Assembly (NCBI GenBank): GCA_043778225.1
Contig: JAYWGM010000093.1
Span: forward strand, 1-64,000
Reading direction: 5' to 3'
Length of the DNA: 64,000 bases
Origin: Deinococcales bacterium
GTDB taxonomy: Bacteria; Deinococcota; Deinococci; Deinococcales; JAAFIG01
This document shows positions 28,411-44,524 of this stretch, piece by piece (within the stretch, counting starts at the first letter, position 1; every line of letters starts with the position of its first letter). The position numbers and the translations under genes were made by a program. Below the pieces are notes generated by a model that saw only the letters and a program-made list of their open reading frames with translations, was not told where the DNA came from and did not search any database.

Positions 28411-28436
28411 GCAATTTTGTCGGTTTTTTGAATTTG

Positions 28437-28490
28437 AGGTCACAGCAAGGTCACAGAGAATCACCGAAGCATCAAATCGCTTCGGTGATT
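28437..28490 (+). promoter_or_regulatory. att-proximal arm-type direct repeats and a hairpin/terminator
   Basis: aggtcacag twice in 11-bp register; aatcaccgaagc / gcttcggtgatt 12-bp perfect stem. Confidence 0.55.
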
Positions 28491-28521
28491 TCATTTTATA
28501 GCGTTCTGCACGCTATTTACT

Positions 28522-28598
28522 TGGCGCACCCAGAGAGGCTCGAACTCCCGACCCGCGAGTTAGAAGCTCGCTGCTCTATCCGGCTGAGCTATGGGTGC
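28522..28598 (-). tRNA. tRNA-Arg (anticodon TCT)
   Basis: Reverse complement gcacccatagctcagccggatagagca-gcgag-cttctaa-ctcgc-...-gttcga-...-gggtgcgcca; cloverleaf with encoded CCA. Confidence 0.97.
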
Positions 28599-30578: not shown

Positions 30579-32187
30579 GGTTTCCTTGGTATTCAAAGTA
30601 ATCAAAATCGGCTTGAATTTTTGTCCCAGCTAAATCCTGAGCGCAAAGGGCAATAAACAAACCCGTAAAGGATAAGCCGTTGCAATAATCATCGGACAGT
30701 TTATAAGTTTCAAAATCGCTGCCAATCCGTTGCCATGTGCTGCCATCGCTCGAGTAGGCAAAATAAAATTTCTGGCGCTCAAAGACCAGCCGCAAATGCA
30801 CCGCGCCCTGAATCGGCACTTCCTGCTCGAGTGGTTCGGAATACACGCCAGCATCCAAAACCAATAAACTCAGGGTTTTACCAAGTTGTTCGTCGCTCGA
30901 GACCCGCAGATAGACCCAGTGCTGATTGTCGTAAAAGGCGGCTAAGCCAGCCATCTGTTGAAAATGCTGTGGTTCAAATTCTAATTTTGTGCTGGCAGTG
31001 GCATTAAAGTGTTGCAAGCGCCGTCCAATTAGGCTTTGGTTGTGGTTGCTAATCAGGCTTTCGCGCCCATATAAGCGCAAAAAATCTGGGCGCTCGGTCA
31101 AACTGAGCCAACTTGAATCTATTGGCAGACGTAAACTCTGCCAATCAAGCCGCAAATCTGGCTGGTCAAAATCGTCTCGAGACAGCGCACTTTCCCAGAC
31201 TTGAGGCTCGAGTAGTGGCGCAGCCACCAGACTGTATGGCGAATTACCATCACCGCGCAAGTAGAGCCAGTCGTCTTCGCGCCATTCCATGGCTTGCAAA
31301 CTGGTTTCGCGCCCAAGCGGACAAAAACCACGCTCTAGGGTTGGCTCGAGTGGACGACCACACAAGTGCGCCAAATACCATTCGCCGTTTTGGGTTTCGA
31401 CCAGACTGGCATGACCGGCTTTACGAAGCTCGAGCAAGGGTTTTTCCCAAGAGGTCAGCACTGGATTATTGGGATGGATTTCATATTCGCCATCGAGGGT
31501 TCTCGAGCGGGCAAGGCTGACCGCGTGTTCATAACTTGTGCCGCCCTCGGCGGTCAGCAGGTGATACCAGCCGTTGTATTTATAAATATGCGGACCCTCG
31601 ACCAGCCCGAGCGGTGTCCCCGAGAAAATATTTTTCACTTGACCGACCAATTTTTGTTCTTTTGGGTCGTATTCTTGCAACATTATCCCCGAAAACTGGT
31701 TTTTGCCAGCGCGGTGGTCCCAGCGCATATTCAGCAGCCACTTACGCCCGTCGGTATCGTGGAACAAACTTGGGTCAAAACCACTCGAGTTTAAGTAAAT
31801 CGGCTCTGACCACTCGCCTTGTATGTCGGTCGCCGTGACCAAATAATTGTGGCTGTCTTTGAACGGACCCGAATTCCAAGTTTTGACATCGGTGTAAATC
31901 AGATGAAACTTTTCGCCGTCGTGGCTTAAACACGGTGCCCAAATACCACAAGAATTTGGATTGCCAGTCATATCAAGTTGGCTCGAGCGACGCAAAGGCG
32001 CTTGTAAGGTGCGCCAATGCACAAGGTCGCGGCTGTGGTGAATCCGCACCCCGGGAAACCATTCAAAAGTGCTGGTGGCAAGGTAATAATCCTGATTTAC
32101 CCGCAAAATACTTGGGTCGGGATGAAACCCTGTCAGGACTGGATTTTGTATCTGGGTAGCTGTTGGCGGCTCGAGTACACTGGTCAT
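30571..32187 (-). CDS. GH43 beta-xylosidase
   Basis: '[13 protein letters not shown]...STFEWFPG...WAP...FDPS...EGPH' plus C-terminal beta-sandwich. Confidence 0.93.
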
Positions 32188-32206
32188 CAATAAACTCCTT
32201 TGCTTG

Positions 32207-33556
32207 TTATCCCTTTAGGAAATCTCCAAACCACTGTCCAGACTGCTTCATCGTGCGCTGTTGGGTCAAGAAATCCACATGGGTTAAGCCAAAGCGTTTT
32301 TCGTACCCTTCTGCCCATTCAAAATTATCCAAAAAGCTCCAAGCAAAATACCCATCCAGTTTAACACCCTGCTGTATTGCCTCGAGACACGCCTCGAGAT
32401 GGCTTTGGAAATAAGCGATGCGCTCGGTGTCCAAAATTTGACCATCTGGCTCGAGTGTATCTTGGTAGGTCGCGCCGTTTTCGGTAATCAGAATACTTTT
32501 TGGGTTGTAATCTTGCTGTAAGCGCCGTAAAAAATCCGATAAACCACTCGGGTAAACTTCCCAATCAAAAAAAGTCCGTGGCACATTTGGCAGATACACA
32601 TGGTTGTAACCAAGTAGCCCTTCGGGGCTGAGGATTTGGCGCACTGGCACAGCTTTCACAATGGTGCGCGAATAGTAATTGATACCGATAAAATCGAGTG
32701 GCGCTGCGATAATTTCGAGGTCGGTGCTGTGGATTTTTGGTGCAGACTGCCCATAAGCCGCTAAAATATCAGATGGGTAGCCTTGACCAAAAACGGGGTC
32801 AAAGTACCAACGGTTCTGGAAGCCATCGGCACGGTGCGCGGCGGCTCTATCCTCGCTCGAGTCAGAAGCTGGATAAACTGGGGAGGGATTCAAGACGATT
32901 CCAGCGTGGACATCGGTCACATTCTGGCGAATAATCGGCATTGCCAGTCCGTGCGCCAAAAGTAAATGATGGGTGGCTTGCAACGAAGCCGCAAAATCGG
33001 TTTTGCCGGGGGCATGAATTCCGATACCATAACCAAGGTACGCCGAACACCACGGCTCATTGAGGGTTGTCCAATTTTTTAGGCGGTCGCCAATAGCTTG
33101 GGTCAGAACATCGGTGTATTCGACAAAAGCATCGGCAGTATCGCGGTTTAACCAACCGCCTTTGTCCTCGAGAATCTGCGGTAAATCCCAGTGGTACAAG
33201 GTGATGTACGGTTTGATGTTGCGCTCGAGTAAGGCATCCACAAGACGGTCATAAAATGCCAGACCAGCTGCATTGACTTGTCCGCGCCCATTGGGCAGGA
33301 CTCGAGACCACGAAGCCGAAAAGCGGTAGGCATCAAAACCGAGTTGCTGCATCAGGTCAAAGTCGGCTTCATAACGGTGGTAGTGGTCGCAAGCCACATC
33401 TCCCGTATCGCCGTTTTTCACTTTGCCAGCAGTTTTTGCAAAAGTATCCCAGATGCTTGGGGTGCGTCCCTCGAGTGTGGTTGCGCCTTCGATTTGATAC
33501 GAGGCGGTGGCGGTTCCCCAAATAAAATTCTTCGGGAAGGCAGATTTTTTAATCAT
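32207..33556 (-). CDS. GH1 beta-glucosidase
   Basis: FIWGTATASYQIEG, TLNEP and ITENG catalytic motifs. Confidence 0.96.
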   Translation of the reverse strand: MIKKSAFPKNFIWGTATASYQIEGATTLEGRTPSIWDTFAKTAGKVKNGDTGDVACDHYHRYEADFDLMQQLGFDAYRFSASWSRVLPNGRGQVNAAGLAFYDRLVDALLERNIKPYITLYHWDLPQILEDKGGWLNRDTADAFVEYTDVLTQAIGDRLKNWTTLNEPWCSAYLGYGIGIHAPGKTDFAASLQATHHLLLAHGLAMPIIRQNVTDVHAGIVLNPSPVYPASDSSEDRAAAHRADGFQNRWYFDPVFGQGYPSDILAAYGQSAPKIHSTDLEIIAAPLDFIGINYYSRTIVKAVPVRQILSPEGLLGYNHVYLPNVPRTFFDWEVYPSGLSDFLRRLQQDYNPKSILITENGATYQDTLEPDGQILDTERIAYFQSHLEACLEAIQQGVKLDGYFAWSFLDNFEWAEGYEKRFGLTHVDFLTQQRTMKQSGQWFGDFLKG

Positions 33557-36500
33557 GGTTTGACCTCTTGGCTGATTTGGGCATAACGATGTGGCGGCAT
33601 GGCTAAAACCACGCCATCCGTGAAGGTGGCAGTTTGATTTTGCGAACTTGGATTATAGGCAAAATACGTGCGGATATTTTGGTGTTGCAATACCGCAAAC
33701 TGTGCCACATCCGCGCCAATTTGTTGCAAAGGTGTGCCAAACTGCCCGAGGCTCGAAAGCCAATGCAGGGTTTGAACTCGAGCATTGCCAAATTCTGGCG
33801 GCAGTTCGGGGTTGTAGGCTTGTTGACCAGCTTTTGGATTGCCCAAGGCTAAATACATCGCTGCCAAGTCATTCCAATAGCGCTCAAGCTTAAATTGTTG
33901 GAAGTTTTGTTCAATAAACTTGGGTTCTCGAGCCAAGTACAAACTTGCACCGGTCAAAGGCAAGGCGTTAATCAGATGAATTGCGCCTTTTGCGCCAGTC
34001 CACCATGTGCCGTACTGCCCACCGTCGCCCCACAGAATCCCAATGGCGGTTGGCTTAAACTGCGGCGGAAAGTTACCACCCACCGCCAACCAATACTGCC
34101 AAACGGCATCGGTCTCGAGGGCATACATTCCAATTGCCCGTTCGAGCAGCGCCGTATTTTGGCTGACTTGGGCATAGCGAATCAGCCCCGCCCAAGCATT
34201 GATGGCTTCGCTTGAACTCTCTTGATTTGCACCGCGCATTCGCCCTCGATTGTCGCCACTTGCCCATGAATGCCCAGCGTAAGCATCAAAATTGCGGGTT
34301 TTTGTAAACGAAGCATCGGCTTCTCCTGCCGCGATTTCTCGAGCGAGGACTTCCAATACGGCATGGTTTTTCTCAAGCCATTCAGGTTTGTGTTCGCCAA
34401 GGCTGGCGGCGGCTTGTAAAAAATAACCAAAATTAAAATGATGGTCGTTAAGTTGGTAATCTGCGCCGTGCGAGGCTGGCACAGGAATAATCGTTCCCCA
34501 ACGTCCATCCCACAACAGTGCATGAGGTGGGGCTGGGTCAAACCATTCCTCAAGCCGAGTTTCGATAGCGCTTAAAATAACTTGTGCTGCACTTTCTTCC
34601 TCGAGTTGTTTGGCAACCTCGAGCATCTGGGTTAAGCGCCCAAAATTACGCGCATCGGTGTAGGCATCAGTGATGCGAATGGACTCCGGCGAAAGCGGAA
34701 AAAACTGCTTGCGAGCCACATACTTGAGTAATTCTGCCCGAATTTCGCTTTGAGGCATGGCTGTGGCAATTGGCAGATTTGGCAAAATACCGGTGTAAGC
34801 TGTGTTGGTGATAAACGAATTGGTGGCAGCCAAGCGAATTTGCCCTCGAGCCGAAACATAACTCCACGGCGAAAGCGGCTGACTCGAGTTTTTCCATTGG
34901 TGTGGATATAAACCCATGACTGCACCGCCAAAAAGCTGATGGCTGGTTTCGACCAGACTGGTTTTGGCAAGCCATCGCCAACTGACTCGAGAATTGGTTG
35001 GCAAGTTATGGTGTTGGCGCAAAAATGCAACCGCTTCGCGCCTTAGCCGAGGGTCTTGTTGGGCTTCTTCGGGCAGGGCTGCTACCACCAGTGTAGCCGC
35101 CTGTACGGTTCTCGAGTTGCCAGAGCCGCGCCAAGTGGCAGGGTCGAGGGTCAAAAAGACATAATCACGTCCACCGACCCGAATACCAAGTGCATCACAA
35201 GAAGTGCATGGGCGCAGCCAAATTTCAGGTGGCTCGAGAAACGAGATTTGAAATGGCTGACCATTGCTTTGAAACCATGCAAAAGGTAAACCTCGACCAA
35301 AAGTGGCTTGGAGAGCTTTATTATTTGCCGCAAACTCGGTTCGCACCAAAAAATCCGAAGCGGCATCGACTCGAGCGTCTGGAAAAGTAAGACCCTCGAG
35401 TCCGACGGTTATTTCTGGCTTAAATGGTGTCGAAAAACCATCTTCTGTTACCTCGAGTTTCGGGTAATTGAGCGCCATACCATTTTTGGTGGCTTGTAGC
35501 GCCAACGGTTGCGCCAGCAGCGCCCCCGAGAATTTTTCCCACAAGAGCGAACCCCACCACGCATTGGTCGGATACGGTGCAGCCAAACTGGCGGTTTTGA
35601 ATTCTGGTGGCGGTGGCGCACGATAATTACCTTCGTTCCAGACGGTTGGCAAATTTAGAAGTGGCTTGGTTGCCAAAACTTGCTTGCGATACACCAAACG
35701 CCAAAAACTCTGGGCGGATAACTCGAGTTGTGGCTTTAATGCCAGTGCCATATCTGGTTTTTCTTCTTGCACCACAGCATCAGTAAAGCCCTTAATGCCA
35801 ATCAGTTCCCAGCCGCTTAAAGCAGTCTCGAGACTTTGGACAGTTTCAGTCGGATTGCTGGCAATCAACATTAAACGGTTTTCTTGTTGGGCGGCATGAA
35901 GCCAGACATTGGGGTTGCTCGAGATAACCTCCAAGGCTTGCCCTAAAAAATGAGTCAAATGCCGGTAAGCATAAAAAGTGGCTTTGGGAACACCAGAAAT
36001 ATCGAGTGTGCCATGCCCACCAATCCCTTGCAAAGCAAAATACGTGTTCAGGGTCGCACCAGCCGTTGCCATTCGCAGGCTTGTTTCGGCAGCCCAAAGC
36101 GCTGCTAACTGGTCGCCAATATGGCGGTTGCTTTCGGTGCGATACGACAGTCCAAATTCGGTTAAACCAAAGCCAACTTGTTTTTGGTATGCCAATGGGT
36201 TTTGAAGTGGATCTTTCCAGAGTGCCATATACTGTTGGCGTTCGCTGTCCACTCGAGCAATGCTGGCTATCGCTGCTTGGTTACTTGCCCGACCATCGGT
36301 TGGATAAACGTGCCAGGTTAAAACATCTATTTGGTCACCACAAAGCCGTACAAACTCTGTCAAAAAAGCCGCGTCTCCAGTTGTGCTAGGACCAACAAAC
36401 TTGGCATTGGGCTGAACCGCCAGAATAGCTTTTCGGTGTGCCTGAAAAGTCTGACAGTATTTTTGGGCAGTCCACGACTTATCACCTCGAGTTACGGCGT

Positions 36501-36936
36501 ATAAATTGGGTTCGTTGCCAACGCTCCAATAATCCACCCGAATGCCAAGCCCGAGCGCCAAACGAGCGGCATTGGCGGCATCTTCGGCTCGATTTTTGCC
36601 GTCGCCACGAGCGCCCTGAAAAGCTCGAGTCTGGATAATCAGTTGCGGCTGAACGCCGTTTTGCTCGAGTAGTTTGAGGTTAATCGCCAGAATTTTGAGG
36701 CTCGAGGCATTCAAATCTTGGTCATCGCCAACATTGCCCGCCGGAAAGCGCAAGAGGCTTGGTTTTAACTCGAGCAGGGCTTTTTTATTTTCAACAATGT
36801 TCATCATATTGCCCAAGTTAAAACCCGAGATGGCTTGGGGCTGAATTTGCGCCAAAGGCATTCCTAGCTTGAGCTTTTCGCCCTGTGCCGATGAACCAAA
36901 ACAGCAACAAATGAGTGCAAACAAGAATTTTTTCAT
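33553..36936 (-). CDS. Secreted two-catalytic-domain glycosidase: N-terminal clan GH-A domain fused to a GH81 endo-1,3-beta-glucanase
   Basis: Signal peptide; 'WSVGNEP' and 'LTEFG' (GH-A acid/base and nucleophile); 'PTNAWW', 'LNDHHFNFGY', 'NQESSSEA' (GH81). Confidence 0.8.
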   Translation of the reverse strand: MKKFLFALICCCFGSSAQGEKLKLGMPLAQIQPQAISGFNLGNMMNIVENKKALLELKPSLLRFPAGNVGDDQDLNASSLKILAINLKLLEQNGVQPQLIIQTRAFQGARGDGKNRAEDAANAARLALGLGIRVDYWSVGNEPNLYAVTRGDKSWTAQKYCQTFQAHRKAILAVQPNAKFVGPSTTGDAAFLTEFVRLCGDQIDVLTWHVYPTDGRASNQAAIASIARVDSERQQYMALWKDPLQNPLAYQKQVGFGLTEFGLSYRTESNRHIGDQLAALWAAETSLRMATAGATLNTYFALQGIGGHGTLDISGVPKATFYAYRHLTHFLGQALEVISSNPNVWLHAAQQENRLMLIASNPTETVQSLETALSGWELIGIKGFTDAVVQEEKPDMALALKPQLELSAQSFWRLVYRKQVLATKPLLNLPTVWNEGNYRAPPPPEFKTASLAAPYPTNAWWGSLLWEKFSGALLAQPLALQATKNGMALNYPKLEVTEDGFSTPFKPEITVGLEGLTFPDARVDAASDFLVRTEFAANNKALQATFGRGLPFAWFQSNGQPFQISFLEPPEIWLRPCTSCDALGIRVGGRDYVFLTLDPATWRGSGNSRTVQAATLVVAALPEEAQQDPRLRREAVAFLRQHHNLPTNSRVSWRWLAKTSLVETSHQLFGGAVMGLYPHQWKNSSQPLSPWSYVSARGQIRLAATNSFITNTAYTGILPNLPIATAMPQSEIRAELLKYVARKQFFPLSPESIRITDAYTDARNFGRLTQMLEVAKQLEEESAAQVILSAIETRLEEWFDPAPPHALLWDGRWGTIIPVPASHGADYQLNDHHFNFGYFLQAAASLGEHKPEWLEKNHAVLEVLAREIAAGEADASFTKTRNFDAYAGHSWASGDNRGRMRGANQESSSEAINAWAGLIRYAQVSQNTALLERAIGMYALETDAVWQYWLAVGGNFPPQFKPTAIGILWGDGGQYGTWWTGAKGAIHLINALPLTGASLYLAREPKFIEQNFQQFKLERYWNDLAAMYLALGNPKAGQQAYNPELPPEFGNARVQTLHWLSSLGQFGTPLQQIGADVAQFAVLQHQNIRTYFAYNPSSQNQTATFTDGVVLAMPPHRYAQISQEVKP

Positions 36937-36993: not shown

Positions 36994-37839
36994 TTAACTC
37001 TTGACCGACCCAGCCGTTAAGCCAGAAATCAATTGCTTAGAAGTGAAAATAAAAATAATCAGCAACGGTAAAACCGTCAGGGCTGTTCCCATCATGTAAC
37101 CACCATAATCAACGTTGGTGACAGTTGTTCCACCCGAAATGGTACGAATTAGGGTTTGTAAAGTTCGGGTTTCGGCAGTCCTAAAAATCAGGCTTTGCAA
37201 AACAAATTCATTCCATGTGCCAATAAACACCAGCAAACCAAGTGTTCCAAGGGCTGGGCGCACCAAAGGCAGAATAATTCGCCAAAAAATACCAAACTCG
37301 GTGCAACCATCGACCCTTGCTGCATCCATCAATTCTCGAGGAATGGCGCTTTGAATGTATTGGCGGGTTAAGAAAATCCCAAAAGCACTTGCCATACCGG
37401 GAAACCACAAGGCTCGAGGTTTATCTATCCAACCAATAAAATTCATGATTAAAAAGAACGGAATTAAATTGAGCGAGGCTGGAATCGCTTGGGTCGCCAC
37501 CACCACCAAGAAAAAACCATTTTTGCCCTTAAAATCATACATTGCAAAGCCATAACCCGCCAAAGTTGAAAAAAACAAGGTCGTGATGGTAGCAATACTT
37601 GCCAGATAACTGCTGTTCCAAAAAACCCGCCAGAACAAACCCTTGGTGGCTTCCATTAAGGCATTGTAATTGCTGACAATTTGGTCAAAGCTGCCGGGGA
37701 TTAAAGGCGGTGGAAAGCTCTGAATAATCGTGCTGCTTTGGGTTGCAAAAACCAGCATAAAGTACAGTGGCAACGCCATCAGGACACCGCCAAAAATAAT
37801 CAGTGGATAAATAATCAAATTGGATAGGGGAAATTTCAT
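36994..37839 (-). CDS. Carbohydrate ABC transporter permease (MalG-type)
   Basis: EAA loop 'IPRELMDAARVDG'; C-terminal 'GLTAGSVK'. Confidence 0.95.
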   Translation of the reverse strand: MKFPLSNLIIYPLIIFGGVLMALPLYFMLVFATQSSTIIQSFPPPLIPGSFDQIVSNYNALMEATKGLFWRVFWNSSYLASIATITTLFFSTLAGYGFAMYDFKGKNGFFLVVVATQAIPASLNLIPFFLIMNFIGWIDKPRALWFPGMASAFGIFLTRQYIQSAIPRELMDAARVDGCTEFGIFWRIILPLVRPALGTLGLLVFIGTWNEFVLQSLIFRTAETRTLQTLIRTISGGTTVTNVDYGGYMMGTALTVLPLLIIFIFTSKQLISGLTAGSVKS

Positions 37840-37853
37840 GATTTATTTTCCTT

Positions 37854-38840
37854 TTAATCGTTGCGAATCTTTGAAAAGATAAAATTATTGACTAAGGTTA
37901 AGAGCATAATCACGGCAAAAAGTACCCATGTCTGGGCGGCTGCATCACCGAACAATAAATTATTAAAGGCGTTATCGAATAAGTACATCACCGATGTGCG
38001 CCCAGCATTGTTGTTGCCACCGCCAGCATTGACCAACAAAAATGGTTCGGCAAACAACTGCATACCGCCAAGAATCGAAAAAGTAATCGCGGTGAACATC
38101 GTTGGGCGTAAAAGTGGCAAAGTGATGTAGCGAAAACGTTCAAAAGTTGTTGCCCCGTCCACTTCGGCGGCTTCGTATAAGTCTTGGGGAATGGCTTGCA
38201 AGCCAGCCAAGTATAAAATTGTGTTAAAACCTGTAAAGCGCCAAACCACCAGAATCGAAATTGAAATTGGAATCATATCGCGGTTGCCCAACCATTTTAT
38301 GGGTTCATCGCTGATGATTGTATTGAGCAGTGGAATTTTATTTAAGACCTCGAGGAAAAACCAATTCAAAAAACCACTGCGCTCCGAGTACAACGTTCCA
38401 AAAACTGCCGAAATAGCCGCCACTGAGGTCACAAAAGGTGCAAAATAAACAGCCGTGACAATTGCTTGATAGCGCTTTAAGCTGGTCTGAATAATAAAAG
38501 CCAAGGGAATGGCAATTAAATGCTGTGGCAGACTCGAGATAAGGGCAATATAAGCAGTTTGCCTAACCGCTTTCCAGAAATCGGTGTCGCCGTTGGCTGG
38601 GTCGAAAAGACCATCAAGAATAAATTTATAGTTGCTTAACCCCACAAATTTCATCCCGCCCAAACCAGAGACCGCATCCCAACTGGTTAAGGAGACATAA
38701 ATCGAAAAAAACATCGGGAACAAGGTAAAAACAAGAAACAAAATAAAAAACGGACTGATAAAAACATACGGTGCTAACAGACGTTGCCATCGTGTGTAGC
38801 TCTGTGTCCAATGTTGTGATTTTTGTATATGGCTGTTCAA
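37854..38840 (-). CDS. Carbohydrate ABC transporter permease (MalF-type); start uncertain
   Basis: 'YLAGLQAIPQDLYEAAEVDGA...ITLPLLRP'; the longer ORF start runs through intergenic hairpins. Confidence 0.9.
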   Translation of the reverse strand: MNSHIQKSQHWTQSYTRWQRLLAPYVFISPFFILFLVFTLFPMFFSIYVSLTSWDAVSGLGGMKFVGLSNYKFILDGLFDPANGDTDFWKAVRQTAYIALISSLPQHLIAIPLAFIIQTSLKRYQAIVTAVYFAPFVTSVAAISAVFGTLYSERSGFLNWFFLEVLNKIPLLNTIISDEPIKWLGNRDMIPISISILVVWRFTGFNTILYLAGLQAIPQDLYEAAEVDGATTFERFRYITLPLLRPTMFTAITFSILGGMQLFAEPFLLVNAGGGNNNAGRTSVMYLFDNAFNNLLFGDAAAQTWVLFAVIMLLTLVNNFIFSKIRND

Positions 38841-38925
38841 GGCAAACCCCTTAAAGTCAAGGCTCGAGATAACCTCGAGCCTTTGGAGGAGGTGTGGTGA
38901 GCAAGCCCACCACAAGAAGAAGTCT

Positions 38926-40185
38926 TTAACGGCGAGCGCGTTTTTCGATTTCGGCTCGAGCTTCGGTCAGTGCCGCTTTGATGTCTTTGCCTTCGTCAAG
39001 AACAGCCGTTAGTTGGGTTGTGACAATTGTTTCGGCTACACTGTCGTACTTGTTGACATCGAGGGCTTTGATTTTCTGAGCTGCGTTCTTCCAGAGTTGA
39101 CGGGCTTTTTGACCGCCCAAGAATTCGACTGGTTCGTTAAAGCTGGCATCGCCCCAAGCGGCTTTGAGGCTTGGGAATGCGCCGTTGCCTTTGAAAGCTG
39201 CGATTTGTTGCTTGCGGTCGGTTGCCAAGAACTTGATGATTTCATAGGCTTCTTTTTTATTCTTAGAAGCAGTTGGAATGGTGTAGAAACTGCCGCCCCA
39301 TGGGGCATATGCGCCATCTGGCAAGTCTTGAACACGCCACAGTCCTTTGGTGTCTGGTGCCATCCAGTTTTGGAAGTGACCCTGTAACCAAGCACCGCTA
39401 AATTGGGTTGCCACTGTACCGGACTTAAAGCCTTCGTACCATTCGTTGCTCCACTCGCCGATTTTTGCGTCCAGTTTGGCATCGCGGATTTGCTTAGCAA
39501 TCGTAAAGGCTTTGACCCAACGGGCGCTGTCTGGTCCGACCAGCACTTTGTTGTCTTTAGAAAAGAAAATGCCTTCGCCGGCTGGGATGTTCGAGCGCCA
39601 AATCAGACCTGCGGCACTGGCAGCGCTGTTAATCAGGAAGACATTTTTGTCTTTGGCTTGGATTTTCTTACCAGCCGCAATGTAGCCTTCCCATGTGGTT
39701 AGGTCGGCAGCACTGACACCGGCTTTCTCGAGAACATCTTTGCGATAAAAAGTTGTACCCGGTCCGATGTCGGCTGGGATGCCAATAAAACGACCATCAG
39801 AAGCCGTGGCTTGACCAATGGTGTAGTCCACAAAAAGGCTCTTTAAGGATTTGGCGTTGTATGGAGCTTTGTTCAAATCCTCGAGTCCACCGCCTTCAGC
39901 AAACTTACCAACAAAGCCAATCTCAACGGCTTCGATGTCGTGTAAGCCTTGTCCAGTTGCTAAAGCCGTGGTCAAAGCCTGATGGTGGTCGCCGTACTGC
40001 AAAGCCACCAATTCAATCTGGTAATTGGGGAACTTGGCTTTTAAGGCGGGCATGGCAATTTTGACAGCTTCATCGAGGCTTGGAAAAGCAGCGATGCTAA
40101 TTTTTTTCATGCTGCCCTGAGCGCTGACTAAACCGGCAACAGCAATCGCGGTGATTCCTAGGGCAATGAGTGTACGAGTTTTCAT
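38926..40185 (-). CDS. Carbohydrate ABC transporter substrate-binding protein
   Basis: Signal peptide, SD ggagg, SBP family 1 motifs 'GIPADIGP..FYRKD', 'WGGS'. Confidence 0.93.
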   Translation of the reverse strand: MKTRTLIALGITAIAVAGLVSAQGSMKKISIAAFPSLDEAVKIAMPALKAKFPNYQIELVALQYGDHHQALTTALATGQGLHDIEAVEIGFVGKFAEGGGLEDLNKAPYNAKSLKSLFVDYTIGQATASDGRFIGIPADIGPGTTFYRKDVLEKAGVSAADLTTWEGYIAAGKKIQAKDKNVFLINSAASAAGLIWRSNIPAGEGIFFSKDNKVLVGPDSARWVKAFTIAKQIRDAKLDAKIGEWSNEWYEGFKSGTVATQFSGAWLQGHFQNWMAPDTKGLWRVQDLPDGAYAPWGGSFYTIPTASKNKKEAYEIIKFLATDRKQQIAAFKGNGAFPSLKAAWGDASFNEPVEFLGGQKARQLWKNAAQKIKALDVNKYDSVAETIVTTQLTAVLDEGKDIKAALTEARAEIEKRARR

Positions 40186-40222: not shown

Positions 40223-40236
40223 TGAAACCGCTTTCA
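40223..40236. promoter_or_regulatory. LacI-family operator upstream of the SBP gene
   Basis: tgaaaccgctttca, one mismatch from the palindrome TGAAAGCGCTTTCA. Confidence 0.75.
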
Positions 40237-40278: not shown

Positions 40279-41283
40279 TCAGCGTCTCAGGCGAGCCGTT
40301 GACTCACGAATAATCAAACTGGGAACAGGGGTGGGAATTTGCAACTGATGCCCCTCGAGTAAATTCAAAACCATTTTGGCTGCTCCAATCCCCATTTCTT
40401 CGCCTGGTTGGCGGATGGTGGTTAAAGGCGGCGTGGTAAAGCCTGCCGAAAACAAATCGTCAAAACCAATTAAGCTCATGTCTTCTGGGACACGAATCCC
40501 ACGGCGGTACAATGCCAAACGCGCTCCAAAACACATCTGGTCGTTAGCGGCAAAAACGGCGGTGATGTCGGTATGGCGAGCCAAAAGCTGTTCCATGGCG
40601 AGTAAACCACTGCGTTCTTGGAAATTGCCCTCGACCACCAAGTCGGCATCAAACTCGAGACCAAAATTGGTCAGGGCTTGCTGATAGCCAGCTAAGCGTT
40701 CACTCGAGTCACGGTGGGTGCTTGGTCCAGCAATATGGGCAATACGCCGATGCCCTAAGCCAATCAGGTGTTGTACGGCTTCGTAAGCCCCATGAATTTG
40801 GTCAATCGTTAGGCACTGATGTTCGAGTTGTGGGATGGTGCGCCCAACCGCCACGACCGGAACGCGCTGGGCTAACTCGAGCAAATAGGCATCCTCGAGG
40901 TTCCCGCCAAGCGTGATGATGCCATCCACCCGCCGTGCCATCAAAATTTCGATCGCTTCACGCTCGGATTCGGCACGCCAATAGCCAGAAATAAACATTG
41001 GATGAAACTGAGTATCGGTAAATCCCTGCTCGATACCCGCCAAGGTCTCGGCATAAAAAGGGCTGGAAATGGCTTGGGTCACGACTCCAACAATCATTGA
41101 ACGCCCTCTTGCAAGCCCTTGCGCCAGAACATTGGGGCGATAGCCCAACTCGGCAATTGCATTTTCGACCAAAACACGCTTTTCGGGGCTGACGGTTGCC
41201 GAGCCATTGAGGATTCTCGAGACCGTACTGGGCGAGACTCTGGCAATTTTAGCAACATCGTTAAGCGTTCGAGGCTGAGACAC
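40279..41283 (-). CDS. LacI-family transcriptional regulator
   Basis: 'TLNDVAKIARVSPSTVSRILN' HTH plus sugar-binding domain. Confidence 0.96.
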   Translation of the reverse strand: MSQPRTLNDVAKIARVSPSTVSRILNGSATVSPEKRVLVENAIAELGYRPNVLAQGLARGRSMIVGVVTQAISSPFYAETLAGIEQGFTDTQFHPMFISGYWRAESEREAIEILMARRVDGIITLGGNLEDAYLLELAQRVPVVAVGRTIPQLEHQCLTIDQIHGAYEAVQHLIGLGHRRIAHIAGPSTHRDSSERLAGYQQALTNFGLEFDADLVVEGNFQERSGLLAMEQLLARHTDITAVFAANDQMCFGARLALYRRGIRVPEDMSLIGFDDLFSAGFTTPPLTTIRQPGEEMGIGAAKMVLNLLEGHQLQIPTPVPSLIIRESTARLRR

Positions 41284-41335
41284 AAGCGCTCCTTTTTTGT
41301 TTGGTTATTTTGGTGAAGGGCAGCATAGCAATTCT

Positions 41336-41349
41336 TGAAAGCGCTGTCA
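41336..41349. promoter_or_regulatory. LacI-family operator upstream of the regulator (autoregulation)
   Basis: tgaaagcgctgtca. Confidence 0.72.
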
Positions 41350-41406
41350 AGAGTGCCAGTGTCGGGGTATTTATTCAAGTTTACTTTAGAAACTCGAGCA
41401 ACCAAT

Positions 41407-44400
41407 TTATTTCTGCTCAAGAAACGGCGCTTCGATGTGCTTATAGGACAAAGCCGCAGCAAGATACGCCAACGCCAACCCAAGACCAGCCAGCCAGAAA
41501 AACTCGAGTGAATTTTGAATCCCGCCATAGCGAAAATCGCTGTTGTGTAGTAAACGAATAAGCTCGAGAATCGGATAGTGCCAGATATAAAGTCCAAAAG
41601 AAATTTTAGCGGTGTATCTAAAAAAAGTATTGTCCAGAACACGCCCAAAGACTCGAGAAAACGGCAAGGTCATCAGCATCAGGGCAATGGTCAGTGGAAA
41701 CCATGGAAAGCGGTAGGGCTGGGCTTGGAAACTTGCACCAAAGTCTCCTGCGCCGCGTAAAAACCATAAAACACCAAGCATTGCCGTAAAAGCCAGAACG
41801 GCAATCATATCAAAGGCAGCACTAGCCGCCGCCAAACGATTTTTTCTGTCGACAATAAAACCAGCCGCCAAAACTCCAAGCAAATAATGGGCAAACATTC
41901 CGACGGCGTTGTAGTTGGGCATCCAGTATTTTGCACCACCAATTAAGCCGTTATCCCAGCCGCGATTGACGTTATCTGGTACAAGTCCCTCGAGAATCAG
42001 ATGATTGACAATAAAGACCACACCCAAAACACCAAGCCAGTACAACAGCGCAAAACCAAAGCCTCGGCGCGGGAACTGCACAAACAAAAACCACATCAAA
42101 AATGGCATTAAGGCGTAACAAAAAATCTCAAAGCCAATGCTCCAAAGTGGTCCATTTAATTCGGCAGGAAACAGGGTGACATACGAAAAAGCCGAGGTAA
42201 AAGTAAGTGCTGAGACCAATCTCAGCCAGATAAAATCGCCACCAACAGCAAAAAATAGACCCAATAAAACACTGACAATGGTGCTGGCATAAAACCCCGG
42301 TACAATCCGCACCGCCCGACGGCGCACAAACTCTGGCATATTTGGCATTGGCTTGTGCGCTAAATAATTGCGCCAAAACGGAATCGAAAGCAGCATTCCC
42401 GACAAGACAAAAAAAGCACTGACCCCGGCACTTCCCTGCTCGAGTAGTGCATCAAAAAACTTCAGGCTGTCAGAAGCCCCATTCGCATCAAAACGCTGCC
42501 AAAGATGATGCAGAATCACCATCAAACAAGCGATGGCACGAATCCCATCCGCACCACTCAGGGTTGTGGCAATCGGAATGACCGCTACTCGAGCCGTTGG
42601 AATGACCGCCATGCCAGACCATCTGGCTCGAGACCACCACGGCAATTGTGTCTGCGGCACAGCGATATTGAGTGCCAAACTGATTTGCCTAGCAAAAACC
42701 AAAAAGACCACAAGCGGCACAAGGCTCGAGATGGCTGTACCAATTTGATATGCCCCATCTGCCCCAGTTTTGGCATTCATGTATGCCAGAATTTGTGAGA
42801 CCATTTGCTGGTCTGGGCTTTTTAAGAGCGCTAACGCCACCGAATTATTATTCCAGACAGTCACAAAGGTCATCAAGCCAAGCGTTACCAAAGCTGGATG
42901 CGCCAACGGTAGCATGATTTGCCAATAAATTCGTAAGTCCGAAGCACCATCAATTCGGGCAGCCTCGAGCAAAGACTTTGGCACAGCACTCTGAACATAC
43001 TGGCGCACCAAAAAGACCCCAAAAGCACTGACTGTGGCTGGGACCCAGACGGCTCTGGCTTGGTCAATCCAACCGAGCAGCGCCATATTTAAGGCGGTTG
43101 GAATCAGGTTCATCAAGCCCGGAAAAAGCATCACGCTCAGCACCAGTCCGTACAAAATGGCTTTACCACGAAACTCCAGCAGCGCAAAAGCAAAACCAGC
43201 CAGACTCGAGACCACAACCGCACCTAGGGTTGCCAGCAGTCCAATATAGGTGCTGTTCCAAAGATTGCGCCAAAACGTCGGTTGTGCCTCGAGCAGCAGG
43301 GCATAGTTGCCAGCCCATGAATCGCCGACGCTCAGCCATTGGTCGGAATAACTGCGGGTTGGGGACAGCAGCAAATTAAAAACTGGAATCAGGCACAGCG
43401 CCAAACCGCCAAGCAGCACAAATTTCATGGCAATTCGAGCAGTCTTTGAGAATTTTAACGGCGAGCTATCGGCTTCGTGTAAAGCAGTCGTCTCGAGGGC
43501 AGTAAAGTTGCGCCCAAAGACTTGATAGAAAATAAACACCACCAAAGCAATACCCATAAAAAACAGCCAAGTCTGAGCGCTGGCAAGTCCAAAATCGCCA
43601 TCCCAAAAAGCAGTGCGAATGATATAGGTCGGTAAATCAATGCCACGAATATCGCTGACCTGACCAAACCACTGCCCAACACTGGTTTGTGTCCCACGCA
43701 AAAAACTCATTGTAAAAGCCACAAAAATCATCGGGCGCATCAGTGGCAAGGCAATATGCCAAAATAAACGCCAAAAACTTGCGCCATCGAGTTGGGCGGC
43801 TTCGTATAAGCTGCGTGGCACGATATTTAAGACCATCAGGTACAACAGCACATTCCAGCCCGTGACATTCCAAAGTTGGGTAAAAGCGGCGGCGGCTTCG
43901 ACGCTCGCAATGGACGGGATACTCGAGCCAACAAGCGGTAGGGCTTGTAAAAAGTCGGTGATTTGCACGGGAATTGCCCAGAAAATTGCAAAAATGGCTG
44001 CCAGCACCGCGCCAGCCGCCAGACTCGAGGTCATAAACGGCAAAAATAAAACCGTGGCAATTGCGCCTTGGATTGGCTTAAAAGCAATGTGCAGCATAAA
44101 TGCCAACGGAATGGCAATCAGGTGTTGCCCAAAAGCGGTCAGCAGCGCCAAGCGCAACGAGCGCCACCAGCCCTGCCAAAAAATCGGGTCTTGGATGGTG
44201 TAATTAAATGCCCATAAGCCATCAAAACGCATTCCAGAAAGACCACTGCTTGGATTCCATTCCATCAAAGAGACCACCAAAGAAAGCAGCAATGGTGCAA
44301 AAGCAAACAGCGTCAGCAACACAAAAAATGGGGCAATAAACCAATAGGCTTGGCTCGAGCCAAGCACGGCGGTTTTTTGGCGCAGACGCTGGCGCAAACG

Positions 44401-44421
44401 AGGCAGCGAAGGATTGGTCAT
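41407..44421 (-). CDS. Fusion protein: MalF-type permease + MalG-type permease + acyltransferase-3 (OafA/OpgC-like) domain
   Basis: Two EAA loops (YEAAQLDGAS, LEAARIDGAS), then 'DGIRAIACLMVILHH', 'GVSAFFVLSG', 'LWSIGFE', 'ISFGLYIWHYPI'. Confidence 0.85.
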   Translation of the reverse strand: MTNPSLPRLRQRLRQKTAVLGSSQAYWFIAPFFVLLTLFAFAPLLLSLVVSLMEWNPSSGLSGMRFDGLWAFNYTIQDPIFWQGWWRSLRLALLTAFGQHLIAIPLAFMLHIAFKPIQGAIATVLFLPFMTSSLAAGAVLAAIFAIFWAIPVQITDFLQALPLVGSSIPSIASVEAAAAFTQLWNVTGWNVLLYLMVLNIVPRSLYEAAQLDGASFWRLFWHIALPLMRPMIFVAFTMSFLRGTQTSVGQWFGQVSDIRGIDLPTYIIRTAFWDGDFGLASAQTWLFFMGIALVVFIFYQVFGRNFTALETTALHEADSSPLKFSKTARIAMKFVLLGGLALCLIPVFNLLLSPTRSYSDQWLSVGDSWAGNYALLLEAQPTFWRNLWNSTYIGLLATLGAVVVSSLAGFAFALLEFRGKAILYGLVLSVMLFPGLMNLIPTALNMALLGWIDQARAVWVPATVSAFGVFLVRQYVQSAVPKSLLEAARIDGASDLRIYWQIMLPLAHPALVTLGLMTFVTVWNNNSVALALLKSPDQQMVSQILAYMNAKTGADGAYQIGTAISSLVPLVVFLVFARQISLALNIAVPQTQLPWWSRARWSGMAVIPTARVAVIPIATTLSGADGIRAIACLMVILHHLWQRFDANGASDSLKFFDALLEQGSAGVSAFFVLSGMLLSIPFWRNYLAHKPMPNMPEFVRRRAVRIVPGFYASTIVSVLLGLFFAVGGDFIWLRLVSALTFTSAFSYVTLFPAELNGPLWSIGFEIFCYALMPFLMWFLFVQFPRRGFGFALLYWLGVLGVVFIVNHLILEGLVPDNVNRGWDNGLIGGAKYWMPNYNAVGMFAHYLLGVLAAGFIVDRKNRLAAASAAFDMIAVLAFTAMLGVLWFLRGAGDFGASFQAQPYRFPWFPLTIALMLMTLPFSRVFGRVLDNTFFRYTAKISFGLYIWHYPILELIRLLHNSDFRYGGIQNSLEFFWLAGLGLALAYLAAALSYKHIEAPFLEQK

Positions 44422-44440
44422 GATGGTGGCTATTGAACCC

Positions 44441-44454
44441 TGAAAGGGCTTTCA
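44441..44454. promoter_or_regulatory. LacI-family operator upstream of the fusion gene
   Basis: tgaaagggctttca, 20 bp upstream of the fusion start codon. Confidence 0.7.
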
Positions 44455-44524
44455 AAGTGTGTCAGAAATATGACATAGCACCAGACTGAACCATCCCAGT
44501 CCACAAAGACGTAAACTAGACAGC

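Follow-up and report, generated by a model that had tools for sequence, protein, structure and literature searches.

The window analyzed here is a 64-kb stretch of DNA from a Deinococcales bacterium, whose minus strand carries one uninterrupted open reading frame (P0001) that joins two ABC sugar permease domains (TMD1 and TMD2) to an acyltransferase-3 (AT3) domain. Alongside it, as an earlier note on this DNA had described, a separate permease pair and a solute-binding protein (SBP) were found, both on the minus strand together with a LacI-family repressor. The features of the locus are as follows:

29103..36936, minus strand: downstream catabolic genes (GH81 enzyme, GH1, GH43, XylB)
36994..38915, minus strand: ordinary unfused permease pair (genes 37854-38915 and 36994-37839)
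38926..40185, minus strand: solute-binding protein (SBP_bac_1); the locus has no other SBP
40223..40236, minus strand: operator copy upstream of the SBP gene (motif match)
40279..41283, minus strand: LacI-family repressor (LacI HTH + Peripla_BP_1/3)
41336..41349, minus strand: operator copy upstream of LacI; a TTGACA -35-like hexamer overlaps it
41407..44421, minus strand: whole fusion ORF P0001, 1,004 aa + stop, order TMD1-TMD2-AT3
41410..42555, minus strand: AT3 (Acyl_transf_3, PF01757) domain, residues 623-1004
41908..41985, minus strand: conserved aromatic-rich loop of AT3 helices 5/6, residues 813-838
42307..42318, minus strand: RXXR motif of AT3 helix 3, R702-A-V-R705
42505..42540, minus strand: R-X10-H motif of AT3 helix 1, R628 ... 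H639, RAIACLMVILHH
42556..42666, minus strand: Linker 2, residues 586-622, disordered in the model and fast-evolving
42667..43446, minus strand: TMD2, MalG/SugB-like permease domain (BPD_transp_1), residues 326-585, six helices in the model
42895..42966, minus strand: EAA coupling loop of TMD2, residues 486-509, read from the sequence, EAARIDGASDLRIYWQIMLPLAHP
43447..43506, minus strand: Linker 1, residues 306-325, low model confidence
43507..44370, minus strand: TMD1, MalF/SugA-like permease domain (BPD_transp_1), residues 18-305, six helices in the model
43732..43803, minus strand: EAA coupling loop of TMD1, residues 207-230, read from the sequence, EAAQLDGASFWRLFWHIALPLMRP
44441..44454, no strand assigned: palindromic LacI-type operator TGAAAGCCCTTTCA, 20 nt upstream of the fusion ATG

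The unfused permeases are the nearest unfused relatives of the fused TMDs in this genome, with 33% identity between TMD1 and the product of 37854-38915 and 36% between TMD2 and that of 36994-37839. The SBP is presumed to be used jointly with the fusion; its best named solved relatives bind cellobiose (8bfy), and the rest carry names no more specific than sugar- or solute-binding protein. Downstream lie genes for a GH81-containing enzyme of 1,127 aa, a GH1 beta-glucosidase, a GH43 enzyme of the beta-xylosidase type and the xylulokinase XylB, with scores for TIGR03356 (BGL) and TIGR01312 (XylB) exceeding their cut-offs. One MalK-type ATPase (G000:C66; ABC_tran + OB_MalK + TOBE_2) was found in the genome, unlinked to the fusion.

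The three-module composition proposed for the 1,004-aa ORF, with two EAA loops and a complete AT3 domain, was borne out by the reading frame, Pfam matches, loops and motifs. BPD_transp_1 matched in two stretches (75.3 bits against a cut-off of 26.4), and Acyl_transf_3 matched residues 623-989 with 111.4 bits (cut-off 31, E 6.2e-32), spanning profile positions 3-325 of 326. An AlphaFold 2 (AF2) model of all 1,004 residues reached a mean pLDDT of 86.2 and a pTM of 0.83, and predicts 22 transmembrane helices in total (6 + 6 + 10). In structural comparisons that included a Foldseek search, modeled TMD1 (18-302) superposed on SugA (7cad_A; Z 18.7, rmsd 4.0, 264 aligned) and modeled TMD2 (324-589) on MalG (2r6g_G; Z 19.0, rmsd 3.6, 259 aligned). 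Model residues 37-583 superposed on the two-domain FbpB chain, which suggests that the predicted TMDs pack like a heterodimer. Partial NCBIfam matches to UgpA, MalF and GlcT models (residues 24-300) and to UgpE, MalG and GlcU models (residues 376-579) all fell below the equivalog cut-offs. The EAA loop consensus is EAA-X3-G-X9-I-X-LP, and P0001 residues 207-226 and 486-505 fit it; across 62 aligned sequences, E207, A208, G213, P226 and P230 are invariant in TMD1, as are E486, D491, G492, A493 and P509 in TMD2. Model confidence drops at the linkers, with mean pLDDTs of 70 and 52 for two 10-residue blocks over 301-320 in the Linker 1 region and values below 50 at 601-615 in Linker 2.

From residue 624 to residue 1000 the AT3 model shows ten long helices, and it contains the TmAT fold core. 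Residues 619-998 matched HGSNAT, the heparan-alpha-glucosaminide N-acetyltransferase (8jkv_A, Z 16.4, rmsd 5.4, 315 aligned; 8tu9_B, Z 14.8) and, at Z 11.5, GWT1, and a sequence search of the PDB gave no match at E up to 1. Both residues of the R/K-X10-H motif, as defined for AT3 helix 1 in the portions available of PMC9833829 and PMC7448272, are invariant in the 62 sequences (R628 and H639), as are both arginines of the RXXR motif described in the same part of PMC9833829 (R702 and R705). R820, W822, G828, G829, K831, W833, Y837 and N838 of the 813-838 loop are likewise invariant, and this loop, which helix counting in the model would place on the outer face, is also conserved in the AT3-TMD2 fusions introduced below (alignment A2). 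No Pfam match to an SGNH/GDSL domain was found in P0001, and the protein ends 4 residues past helix 10. Judged by their residues, the ATPase-coupling loops and the acyl-CoA-site motifs are intact. When AT3 and the TMD pair were docked as two chains, ipSAE was 0.48 against 0.00 for the best of 3 controls, a mark of "weak support" that 116/157 solved complexes and 2/215 mismatched pairs reach, with only 18/157 solved complexes, plus both mismatches that passed, lying at ipSAE 0.60 or below. Docking runs shared at least 92% of contacts, with a partner pLDDT of at least 81.

In the architecture check proposed earlier (BPD_transp_1 x2 + Acyl_transf_3), both Pfam families occurred together in 66 of 71 matching clusters, of which 63, query included, share the architecture of P0001 at lengths of 955-1,188 aa. 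Fusions, full-length or contig-cut, were present in 9 of 60 sampled Deinococcota genera, and 16 of the 18 genomes of the window's own family contained a match. The hosts of the fusion gene are freshwater Deinococcus relatives. Estimates of dN/dS were 0.085-0.14 for TMD1, 0.045-0.08 for TMD2 and 0.083-0.13 for AT3, values that are rough as dS was saturated (1.1-2.6), and all three modules are under purifying selection; Linker 2 reached 0.19-0.65, compared with 0.05-0.14 in the domains. The earlier note had named a singleton under relaxed selection as a reason for doubt, and this doubt falls away with the cluster and genus counts and with dN/dS of about 0.05-0.14 in the modules. Its other doubt, that the junctions might be assembly errors, was also removed. 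Logan contigs of two runs each span 41300-44560 in one piece with zero differences and zero joints; these runs belong to one study that is possibly the source of this DNA and are therefore not independent evidence, which comes instead from dozens of other assemblies that have this architecture too.

The claim that the fusion gene has the same LacI-type operator upstream as its neighbors also held. The pattern TGAMAGSSSTTTCA occurs at three places in the window, upstream of the fusion, LacI and SBP genes, compared with a mean of 0.02 matches in shuffled sequence (observed number equalled in 0/100), and the rest of the 4.03-Mb genome contains no further match. Because the pattern was written from those three sites, counting it in the window is by itself circular; independent support comes from its recurrence in other genomes. 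Orthologues in L001-L004, L016 and L057-L060 have the motif immediately upstream of them; in the last of these sets, from four Deinococcus species, the fusion gene sits between aro genes and rplM-rpsI and has still kept the operator. Genome G113 has four sites, one at the fusion, one at a LacI-SBP-permease pair opposite ROK-XylB-XylA-mutarotase, one at a LacI gene opposite GH9-GH8 and one within a GH3 operon. The fusion gene shares its operator with genes for xylo- and cello-oligosaccharide utilization. Taken jointly, this regulon membership and the architecture of P0001, a single-chain, CUT1-type membrane unit of a binding-protein-dependent ABC sugar importer with AT3 at its cytoplasmic C-terminus, can be regarded as close to certain.

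Among the clade-A loci, 9/15 have glycoside hydrolases within six genes, and four of the six without sugar genes nearby carry the operator. The clade-B loci have LacI in 6/6 and GH2 directly upstream in 5/6, with a CE7 esterase (AXE1) between GH2 and fusion in 2/6, and a paralogue in the same genome as P0001 follows genes for beta-mannosidase (GH2) and acetyl esterase (CE7). A divergent member (L062) neighbors FabH, ACP, P450 and SDR genes. The enzymes of the locus and regulon comprise GH81 and GH10 (both with signal peptides), GH43, GH1, GH3, GH9, GH8, xylose isomerase and xylulokinase. All neighbors and regulon members scanned were catabolic, transport or regulatory genes, with no biosynthetic glucan genes among the neighbors, and the locus and regulon are catabolic, directed at outside polysaccharides. 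The example given in the earlier note, a machine making or recycling acylated periplasmic beta-glucans, is thus unsupported.

Members of the same AT3 subfamily are joined to CUT1 permeases in at least three orders besides TMD1-TMD2-AT3, namely TMD1-AT3-TMD2 (P0102), TMD1-AT3 (P0101, P0115) and AT3-TMD2 (P0065, P0066, P0103). Three metagenome loci (L076, L078, L082) have TMD1 followed by AT3-TMD2 and an AGE-family epimerase, and AT3 and TMD2 are separate ORFs in L085. L078, L082 and L085 showed no SBP gene at a distance of up to five genes from their AT3-TMD2 fusions, and dependence on an SBP is therefore not general. In a quick tree of AT3 domains, three fusion types fell into three separate subclades, with SH-aLRT values of 97 for AT3-TMD, 98 for TMD-AT3 and 94 for a 24-row set holding the TMD-TMD-AT3 rows. 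The nearest stand-alone AT3 relatives in Deinococcota (49-53% identity) have an M20 peptidase, a tRNA-editing protein, ArgRS and HtrA as neighbors and no sugar genes. Farther out in the AT3 set there are fusions to Wzy_C (O-antigen ligase-like) and VanZ domains.

On balance, the AT3 domain is slightly more likely than not to act on the transported oligosaccharide, in one direction or the other. This retains the core of the earlier proposal, transport-coupled acylation or deacylation of oligosaccharides, as the best reading once its beta-glucan example is set aside, and two findings strengthen this reading: fusions of AT3 to permeases occur in other domain orders as well, and the gene stays in the regulon where it is unlinked. 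The shared operator, which extends to unlinked genes, the paralogue beside beta-mannosidase and CE7 genes and the other domain orders are new here. In line with the statement that no described example was known, our literature search found no description of an importer-AT3 fusion; the proteins are already in public databases under automatic names.

The best explanation, offered tentatively, is that imported oligosaccharides are O-acylated as they are taken up. The fused TMD pair would form a second translocon, working with the only SBP of the locus and the unlinked MsiK/MalK-type ATPase of the genome. The SBP would deliver a beta-linked oligosaccharide to the outer mouth of this translocon while the AT3 pore presents cytoplasmic acyl-CoA, the donor being, at a guess, most likely acetyl-CoA. 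H639 would then catalyze O-acylation of the cargo, which would be imported in modified form. Acylation is preferred over its reverse solely because every characterized AT3/TmAT enzyme runs in that direction, and HGSNAT offers a precedent for transmembrane acetylation in a degradative pathway (PMC11357348, as far as its accessible text goes). Against it, acylation has no obvious benefit in a catabolic pathway, and in the paralogue's operon acetylation would be a futile cycle with the CE7 esterase encoded there. Cello- and beta-1,3-gluco-oligosaccharides, in which acylation has no role known to us, also fall under the regulon. The housekeeping neighborhoods of stand-alone AT3 relatives, the 6/15 clade-A loci without sugar genes, the setting of L062, the AT3-TMD2 fusions with no SBP nearby and the weak docking result likewise speak against acylation of the cargo.

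Acyl transfer might instead run from sugar to CoA, which we consider unlikely. The fused translocon would import natively O-acetylated xylo- or manno-oligosaccharides while AT3 strips acetyl at the outer face and hands it over either to CoA in the cytoplasm (acetyl salvage) or to water, and ATP-driven import of the deacetylated sugar would pull the otherwise unfavorable reaction forward. In such a scheme there is a reason for AT3 to need physical attachment to an importer, which forward acylation does not require. Xylan and mannan are the main naturally acetylated hemicelluloses, and the fusions are tied to both (GH10, GH43 and XylAB; GH2 beta-mannosidase, GH5 and AGE-type epimerase). A CE7 acetyl esterase precedes the fusion in the paralogue's operon (L017, L067) and a GDSL esterase lies near it in L064, so that the handling of acetyl groups is a theme here. 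The neighbors scanned in clade-A loci included no esterase, which would leave a place for AT3 in that role. The accessible part of PMC6344601 mentions acetylated galactoglucomannan and arabinoglucuronoxylan. Against this direction, the regulon also serves non-acetylated cello-oligosaccharides (GH9, GH8, GH1). Ester-to-thioester transfer is uphill by roughly 10 kJ/mol, and we know of no AT3/TmAT enzyme that runs in reverse or acts as an esterase. The reviews searched, in the parts available, give only transfer from acyl-CoA to an acceptor. If deacylation did occur, the cell would gain acetyl-CoA directly from plant-fiber acetyl esters, P0001 would be the first AT3 to act in reverse and in catabolism, and its coupling of group transfer to transport would be of a new form.

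It also seems rather improbable that AT3 acylates something other than the cargo, such as a cell-envelope glycan, with the permease pair an ordinary importer or an anchor fused for co-expression. The housekeeping contexts of close stand-alone relatives and the distant Wzy_C and VanZ fusions fit this idea, and all characterized bacterial AT3 proteins modify cell-surface or secreted glycans according to the part available of PMC9558356. However, the joining of AT3 to permease domains is seen repeatedly, in four domain orders or more and across lineages whose GC contents differ greatly, a pattern difficult to account for if the two had no common task. Even unlinked copies of the gene keep the catabolic operator, the sugar-linked loci scanned showed no genes for envelope biosynthesis, and both EAA loops have invariant residues.

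Quite improbable is a regulatory module, in which AT3 would bind cytoplasmic acyl-CoA and gate the importer by the acetyl-CoA pool, leaving the sugar unmodified, by analogy with inducer exclusion. The invariant CoA-binding arginines R628, R702 and R705, which the published AT3 model places toward the cytoplasm (PMC9833829, in the portion available), and the tethering of AT3 to the TMD that contacts the ATPase are in its favor; a pure sensor would nevertheless have no need of the catalytic H639 or of the presumably outward-facing 813-838 loop, both also invariant, and no precedent was found. A chimeric assembly or a recent, functionless fusion is refuted, although an in-frame TGA splits the gene of one relative (G134; L026/L053) into 499 + 539 aa, by dozens of independent assemblies with the same architecture, junctions inside single contigs, dN/dS of about 0.1 per module and invariant functional motifs, and its probability is negligible.

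Overall, P0001 is unstudied as a design; it may attach acyl groups to sugars, or take them off, as these are imported. Like the CUT1 importers MalFGK2, LpqY-SugABC and alginate AlgM1M2SS, it has two BPD_transp_1 domains with EAA loops, matches their folds (MalG, Z 19.0; SugA, Z 18.7; AlgM2, Z 17.0), and has an adjacent SBP gene and a MalK/MsiK-type ATPase elsewhere in the genome. In contrast to them, its halves form one chain with a third, enzymatic membrane domain, and it lies beside an ordinary unfused pair, with no SBP or ATPase evidently dedicated to it. Both membrane halves also share one polypeptide in FbpB of Thermus thermophilus FbpBC (9j4r_A), the structure closest to residues 37-583 (Z 25.0, rmsd 3.9, 470 aligned), but FbpB belongs to an iron importer of another ABC family, has 15% identity and lacks an acyltransferase domain. 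LacA and Maa are acetyl-CoA-dependent sugar acetyltransferases often encoded by the last gene of repressor-controlled sugar uptake operons; unlike P0001, they are soluble left-handed beta-helix proteins of unrelated fold that are not fused to a transporter. With the AT3 enzymes Oac, OafA/OafB, OatA, OpgC and NodX, P0001 shares PF01757, ten helices, the R-X10-H and RXXR motifs and a presumed acyl-CoA pore open to the cytoplasm. The targets of those enzymes are surface or secreted glycans of the cell itself, and their contexts are biosynthetic, whereas P0001 is fused to importer domains and controlled with catabolic genes, and it differs from the AT3-SGNH enzymes (OafA, OafB, OatA, PglI) in having neither an SGNH domain nor an eleventh helix. 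The words "ABC" and "permease" are absent from the available parts of the AT3 reviews searched. The best solved structural relative of residues 619-998 is lysosomal HGSNAT of the TmAT superfamily, a eukaryotic N-acetyltransferase with 11-12% identity and no attached transporter, which resembles the proposed activity in that its transmembrane, acetyl-CoA-dependent acetylation serves glycan breakdown (PMC11357348, accessible text).

By sequence, motif and fold features, the window fusion (P0001) is a member of both the AT3 (Acyl_transf_3) family and the CUT1-type ABC permease family, with two permease domains (TMD1, MalF/SugA-like; TMD2, MalG/SugB-like) preceding the acyltransferase.

41407-44421, minus strand: fusion P0001, encoded by one open frame (1,004 codons)

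Pfam identified BPD_transp_1 in two stretches (75.3 bits against a cut-off of 26.4) and a single Acyl_transf_3 domain at residues 623-989 (111.4 bits against a cut-off of 31), and both EAA coupling loops are present in the sequence (residues 207-230 and 486-509). The AT3 part carries R-X10-H in helix 1 (R628, H639) and RXXR in helix 3 (R702, R705), motifs treated as essential in the passages of the AT3 literature that define them (PMC9833829, PMC7448272). P0001 is not of the AT3-SGNH type, having neither an SGNH domain nor an eleventh helix. NCBIfam contains no model for the fusion, and P0001 gave sub-threshold matches to permease equivalogs only.

An AlphaFold2 model of P0001 built with 62 homologues (mean pLDDT 86.2, pTM 0.83) presented 6 + 6 + 10 long helices and was weak at the N-terminus (pLDDT below 50, residues 1-17), in the first linker (block means of 70 and 52 over residues 301-320) and in the second (below 50 at 601-615). 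Residues 37-583 superposed on the single-chain two-domain permease FbpB (9j4r_A; Z 25.0, rmsd 3.9, 470 aligned), residues 18-302 on SugA (Z 18.7), residues 324-589 on MalG (Z 19.0), and residues 619-998 on human HGSNAT (Z 16.4 and 14.8) and GWT1 (Z 11.5). The HGSNAT and GWT1 matches surfaced solely in a wide structural search: Foldseek of the PDB with the model listed ABC permeases alone and no AT3 relative, and a sequence search of the PDB with the AT3 part returned 0 matches at E up to 1. By helix counting all junctions would be cytoplasmic, so the three modules appear topologically compatible. An aromatic-rich loop (813-838; R820, W822, K831, W833, Y837, N838) is invariant in the alignments, is also retained in AT3-TMD2 fusions and, predicted by helix counting to lie on the outer face, is a candidate sugar site.

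The earlier note had allowed that the fusion might be an assembly error or a singleton under relaxed selection, and neither is the case. A word-indexed search with P0001 returned 71 proteins; 66 clusters have both Pfam families, and 63 of these, query included, share the architecture at 955-1,188 aa, with identity from 82% down to 37%. Two fusion clusters were named by their sources (Deinococcus sonorensis and Meiothermus sp.), and a Deinococcus metalli member is annotated merely as "acyltransferase family protein"; D. metalli and D. sonorensis are carriers that are in culture and harmless. Matches to P0001 at E <= 1e-60 occurred in 47 of 364 Deinococcota genomes, a count that takes in stand-alone AT3 genes and neighbouring permease pairs, and full-length or contig-truncated fusions were found in 9 of 60 genera in the match table; the window's own family had a match in 16 of 18 genomes. 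Logan contigs of two runs crossed both junctions with no differences and were given no independent weight, as they possibly derive from the source sample. Invariant across the alignment (62 of 64 candidates; P0005 and P0013 omitted) were the EAA residues, R628, H639, FFVLS (670-674), R702 and R705, with G675 nearly so, and dN/dS was low in all three modules.

dN/dS by module (Nei-Gojobori; P0001 against three orthologues, plus two orthologues against each other; figures are rough because dS was saturated, 1.1-2.6)
TMD1: 0.085-0.14
TMD2: 0.045-0.08
AT3: 0.083-0.13
Second linker: 0.19-0.65

One candidate locus (L055, genome G114) was dropped, having no BLAST match to P0001 and an anomalous composition; in the genome search G114 gave an implausible open frame of 3,837 aa. 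Separately, in three genomes of one genus (g11), a single uninterrupted frame of ~616-645 aa encodes MalF-like and MalG-like domains and lacks AT3; it resembles a permease pair that is fused yet carries no acyltransferase.

Permease-pair frames of genus g11
G119:C5:68330-70045
G120:C47:5357-7027
G121:C21:77927-79603

On the same strand, 3' of the window fusion, lie genes for a LacI repressor, one solute-binding protein (SBP) and an ordinary permease pair, together with four enzyme genes. One of these encodes a protein of 1,127 aa that has a start resembling a signal peptide and GH81 as its C-terminal domain; the others encode a GH1 beta-glucosidase that scores over the TIGR03356 cut-off, an enzyme of the GH43 beta-xylosidase type and a xylulokinase that scores over the TIGR01312 cut-off. 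Among unfused proteins of the genome, the adjacent permeases are closest to the fused TMDs (36-38% identity in the genome search, 33-36% by pairwise BLASTP). The best named solved relative of the SBP binds cellobiose, others being generically named. No ATPase gene was present in the window locus; the genome has one MalK/MsiK-type ATPase, away from it, on which the ordinary permease pair must also depend. Three further features of the window were recorded.

27055-28598: tyrosine recombinase (Phage_integrase family, 451 aa) adjoining tRNA-Arg(tct) at the far end of the sugar locus, which may be the edge of an integrated element
33553-36936, minus strand: N-terminal module with a weak match to GH39 (E 4e-5 to 1e-7), also at L009:5830-8046 and L054:15158-16432; the window copy is joined to GH81, the L009 copy is joined to GH10 and the L054 copy stands alone. 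The module probably represents an unclassified glycanase of TIM-barrel fold travelling with the regulon
44525-46432, plus strand, divergent from the fusion: Ser/Thr protein kinase of 635 aa for which a membrane segment is predicted and whose C-terminal half (~250 aa) lacks a Pfam match; a 620-aa ORF has the same position in L001, an orthologous locus

The window contains a palindrome-like motif of 14 bp at three sites and no others: 5' of the fusion, of the LacI gene and of the SBP gene. The 4.03-Mb genome has no further match, shuffles averaged 0.02 matches, and the reversed control pattern had zero matches in all four genomes scanned, the window's included. The same window-derived motif lies directly 5' of orthologous fusions in L001-L004 and L016, and of the fusion in 4/4 Deinococcus loci with housekeeping neighbours. 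Genome G113 has four sites. One is at the fusion, one is within a GH3 operon, and two are intergenic: the first separates LacI-SBP-permease-permease from a divergent ROK-XylB-XylA-mutarotase operon, the second separates another LacI from GH9-GH8 genes. In G075, a LacI-SBP-permease-...-GH43 operon opposite ROK-XylB-XylA-mutarotase has a site on each side of its LacI gene. LacI repressors probably bind these sites, and the motif footprint places the fusion in a conserved xylo-/cello-oligosaccharide regulon, the scanned part of which holds one SBP and one ordinary permease pair. A promoter scan found no sigma-70-like site 5' of the fusion, the sole intergenic match being at the LacI gene, and no RNA data set was listed as containing the stretch.

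In the fusion's own clade (clade A), glycoside hydrolases lay within six genes at 9 of the 15 loci examined. The window and two near-orthologues share a common gene order (for the two, by ORF sizes and BLAST only).

Gene orders at other clade A loci
L005: GH81-GH1-...-GH43-XylA-XylB-fusion
L009, L050: LacI-SBP-permeases-GH10-GH43-fusion
L051: GH43-fusion
L054: SBP-permeases-GH39-like-GH1-GH3-fusion
L061: LacI-SBP-permease-GH10-GH1-GH43-fusion

Sugar genes were absent nearby at the other six: L053, L056 (unrelated neighbours) and four Deinococcus species, where the fusion lies between aroC/aroB/aroQ genes and rplM-rpsI (aroK was seen in L060). The L026/L053 orthologue (G134:C209) has one in-frame TGA, giving ORFs of 499 and 539 aa; this may reflect a sequencing error, decay into a pseudogene or a gene that is naturally split. 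A divergent member of 39% identity (L062:8428-11556; G136:C75) has FabH, ACP, cytochrome P450, malonyl-CoA:ACP transacylase-like and SDR neighbours rather than sugar genes, which hints at a different acyl donor or acceptor on that branch.

The window's genome also encodes a paralogous TMD1-TMD2-AT3 fusion of 1,058 aa (~41% identity), representing a second clade (clade B).

G000:C101, about 87840-91016 (L017:9840-13016), minus strand: paralogue

It is the last gene of an operon with a GH2 beta-mannosidase-type enzyme and a CE7 acetyl xylan esterase (AXE1, E 3.3e-115), divergent to LacI, SBP and ordinary permease pair genes; this SBP had weak matches only among solved relatives. Across clade B (n=6), LacI was present at 6/6 loci, GH2 directly upstream of the fusion at five, divergent SBP and permeases at five, a CE7 esterase at two and a GDSL esterase nearby at one. 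The paralogue converges on an M20 peptidase gene (L017:8783-9886), and stand-alone AT3 genes in L069, L070, L094, L098 and L100 likewise adjoin one, often with a tRNA-editing-domain gene; this adjacency may be a remnant of ancestral synteny.

A phmmer search with the AT3 part alone gave 123 cluster representatives at E <= 1e-30, mostly stand-alone proteins of ~400 aa, alongside several other architectures.

Other architectures containing the AT3 domain
TMD1-AT3-TMD2, one chain: P0102
TMD1-AT3: P0101, P0115
MalG-like TMD then AT3: P0106
AT3-TMD2: P0065, P0066, P0103
VanZ-AT3-PHP: P0201, P0203, P0223
(VanZ-)Wzy_C-AT3: P0186, P0224
AT3-DUF2141: P0089

On metagenome contigs of 35-49% GC, a conserved set comprises a MalF-like permease, an AT3-MalG fusion and an AGE-family protein (cellobiose or N-acylglucosamine 2-epimerase-like), Pfam-confirmed in L076, L078 and L082 and recognized by ORF sizes elsewhere. 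The Pfam scans omitted L071 and about half of the AT3-TMD2 loci (L077 in part, L079-L081, L083, L084 and L092), as their synteny repeats their neighbours'. The AGE-family protein (~505 aa, bigger than typical family members) is always directly downstream in L076, L078, L082 and L085. A divergent AraC-type regulator occurs in L082 and L085, a GH5 gene adjoins the set in L082, and a further ordinary permease pair accompanies it in L076; L085 encodes the AT3 and MalG-like domains as separate ORFs. A stand-alone AT3 of the same subfamily (L095:1597-6185) adjoins a BglG-type antiterminator and a beta-glucoside-type PTS EIIBCA, a further AT3-sugar-transporter neighbourhood, here with a PTS. In a quick maximum-likelihood tree of AT3 domains (IQ-TREE; P0217 omitted), the three fusion types fell in three separate subclades with stand-alone proteins interleaved; the tree is unrooted and so gives no count or order of fusion or fission events.

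P0001 is a conserved AT3-importer unit with intact ATPase-coupling loops and intact catalytic and CoA-site motifs, co-regulated with hemicellulose/cellulose oligosaccharide catabolism. We propose that it would serve as a second translocon on the shared SBP and a MalK-type ATPase, and that its AT3 domain may act on the oligosaccharide under uptake. Acyl transfer on imported cargo, in either direction, seems to us somewhat the better bet. Against it count the housekeeping contexts of the closest stand-alone AT3 relatives in Deinococcota, the missing SBPs near AT3-TMD2 fusions and the weak docking score of the AT3 part, as a separate chain, on the TMD pair (ipSAE 0.48, best of three controls 0.00; rated "weak support" by the tool). 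The docking runs had at least 92% contact agreement and a partner pLDDT of at least 81; the tool's mark is reached by 116 of 157 solved complexes and 2 of 215 mismatched pairs, and at ipSAE 0.60 or under by 18 of the 157 and both passing mismatches. Of the two directions, transfer from acyl-CoA to the sugar is tentatively the likelier, though short of an even chance, since every characterised AT3 and HGSNAT work that way. The reverse, deacetylating direction would account for the tie to naturally acetylated xylan and mannan, for the CE7 esterase in the paralogue's operon and for the need of physical coupling to an ATP-driven importer, but it is without precedent and thermodynamically uphill, and we regard it as unlikely. 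An AT3 acceptor other than the cargo is distinctly improbable, and a purely regulatory AT3 domain very improbable. The earlier note's example of acylated periplasmic beta-glucans was abandoned, as the neighbours and regulon members scanned are catabolic, transport or regulatory genes.

Binding-protein-dependent ABC importers are seen as pure transporters, and AT3 proteins as enzymes that modify glycans on the cell's own surface. This fusion unites a whole importer membrane unit with an intact AT3 domain in one conserved protein, which is co-regulated with the catabolism of oligosaccharides from xylan, cellulose and mannan. AT3-permease joining recurs in several domain orders and unrelated lineages. 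These findings suggest that in some bacteria oligosaccharides are chemically edited while being taken up. Acetyl groups are a recognised obstacle in hemicellulose use, and uptake-coupled acyl editing, if real, would be a new mode of transport-linked chemistry, adding a step to hemicellulose-use models, offering AT3 biochemistry a soluble, defined small acceptor and providing a bacterial counterpart of lysosomal HGSNAT.

No description of an AT3-ABC-importer fusion was found in the open full-text literature (that is, outside subscription journals and supplementary files), where both Pfam accessions occur together in a single paper, on an EPS cluster; the fusions named in AT3 reviews are confined to SGNH, alanine-racemase and unnamed eukaryotic ones. 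New here are the evidence on operator and regulon, the paralogue linked to CE7, the selection figures, and the other domain orders together with the epimerase and GH5 genes around them. Single-chain TMD pairs have a precedent in the permease FbpB. The closest functional analogies to the fusion are HGSNAT, which acetylates across a membrane as part of a degradative pathway, and LacA/Maa, soluble acetyltransferases encoded in sugar operons.
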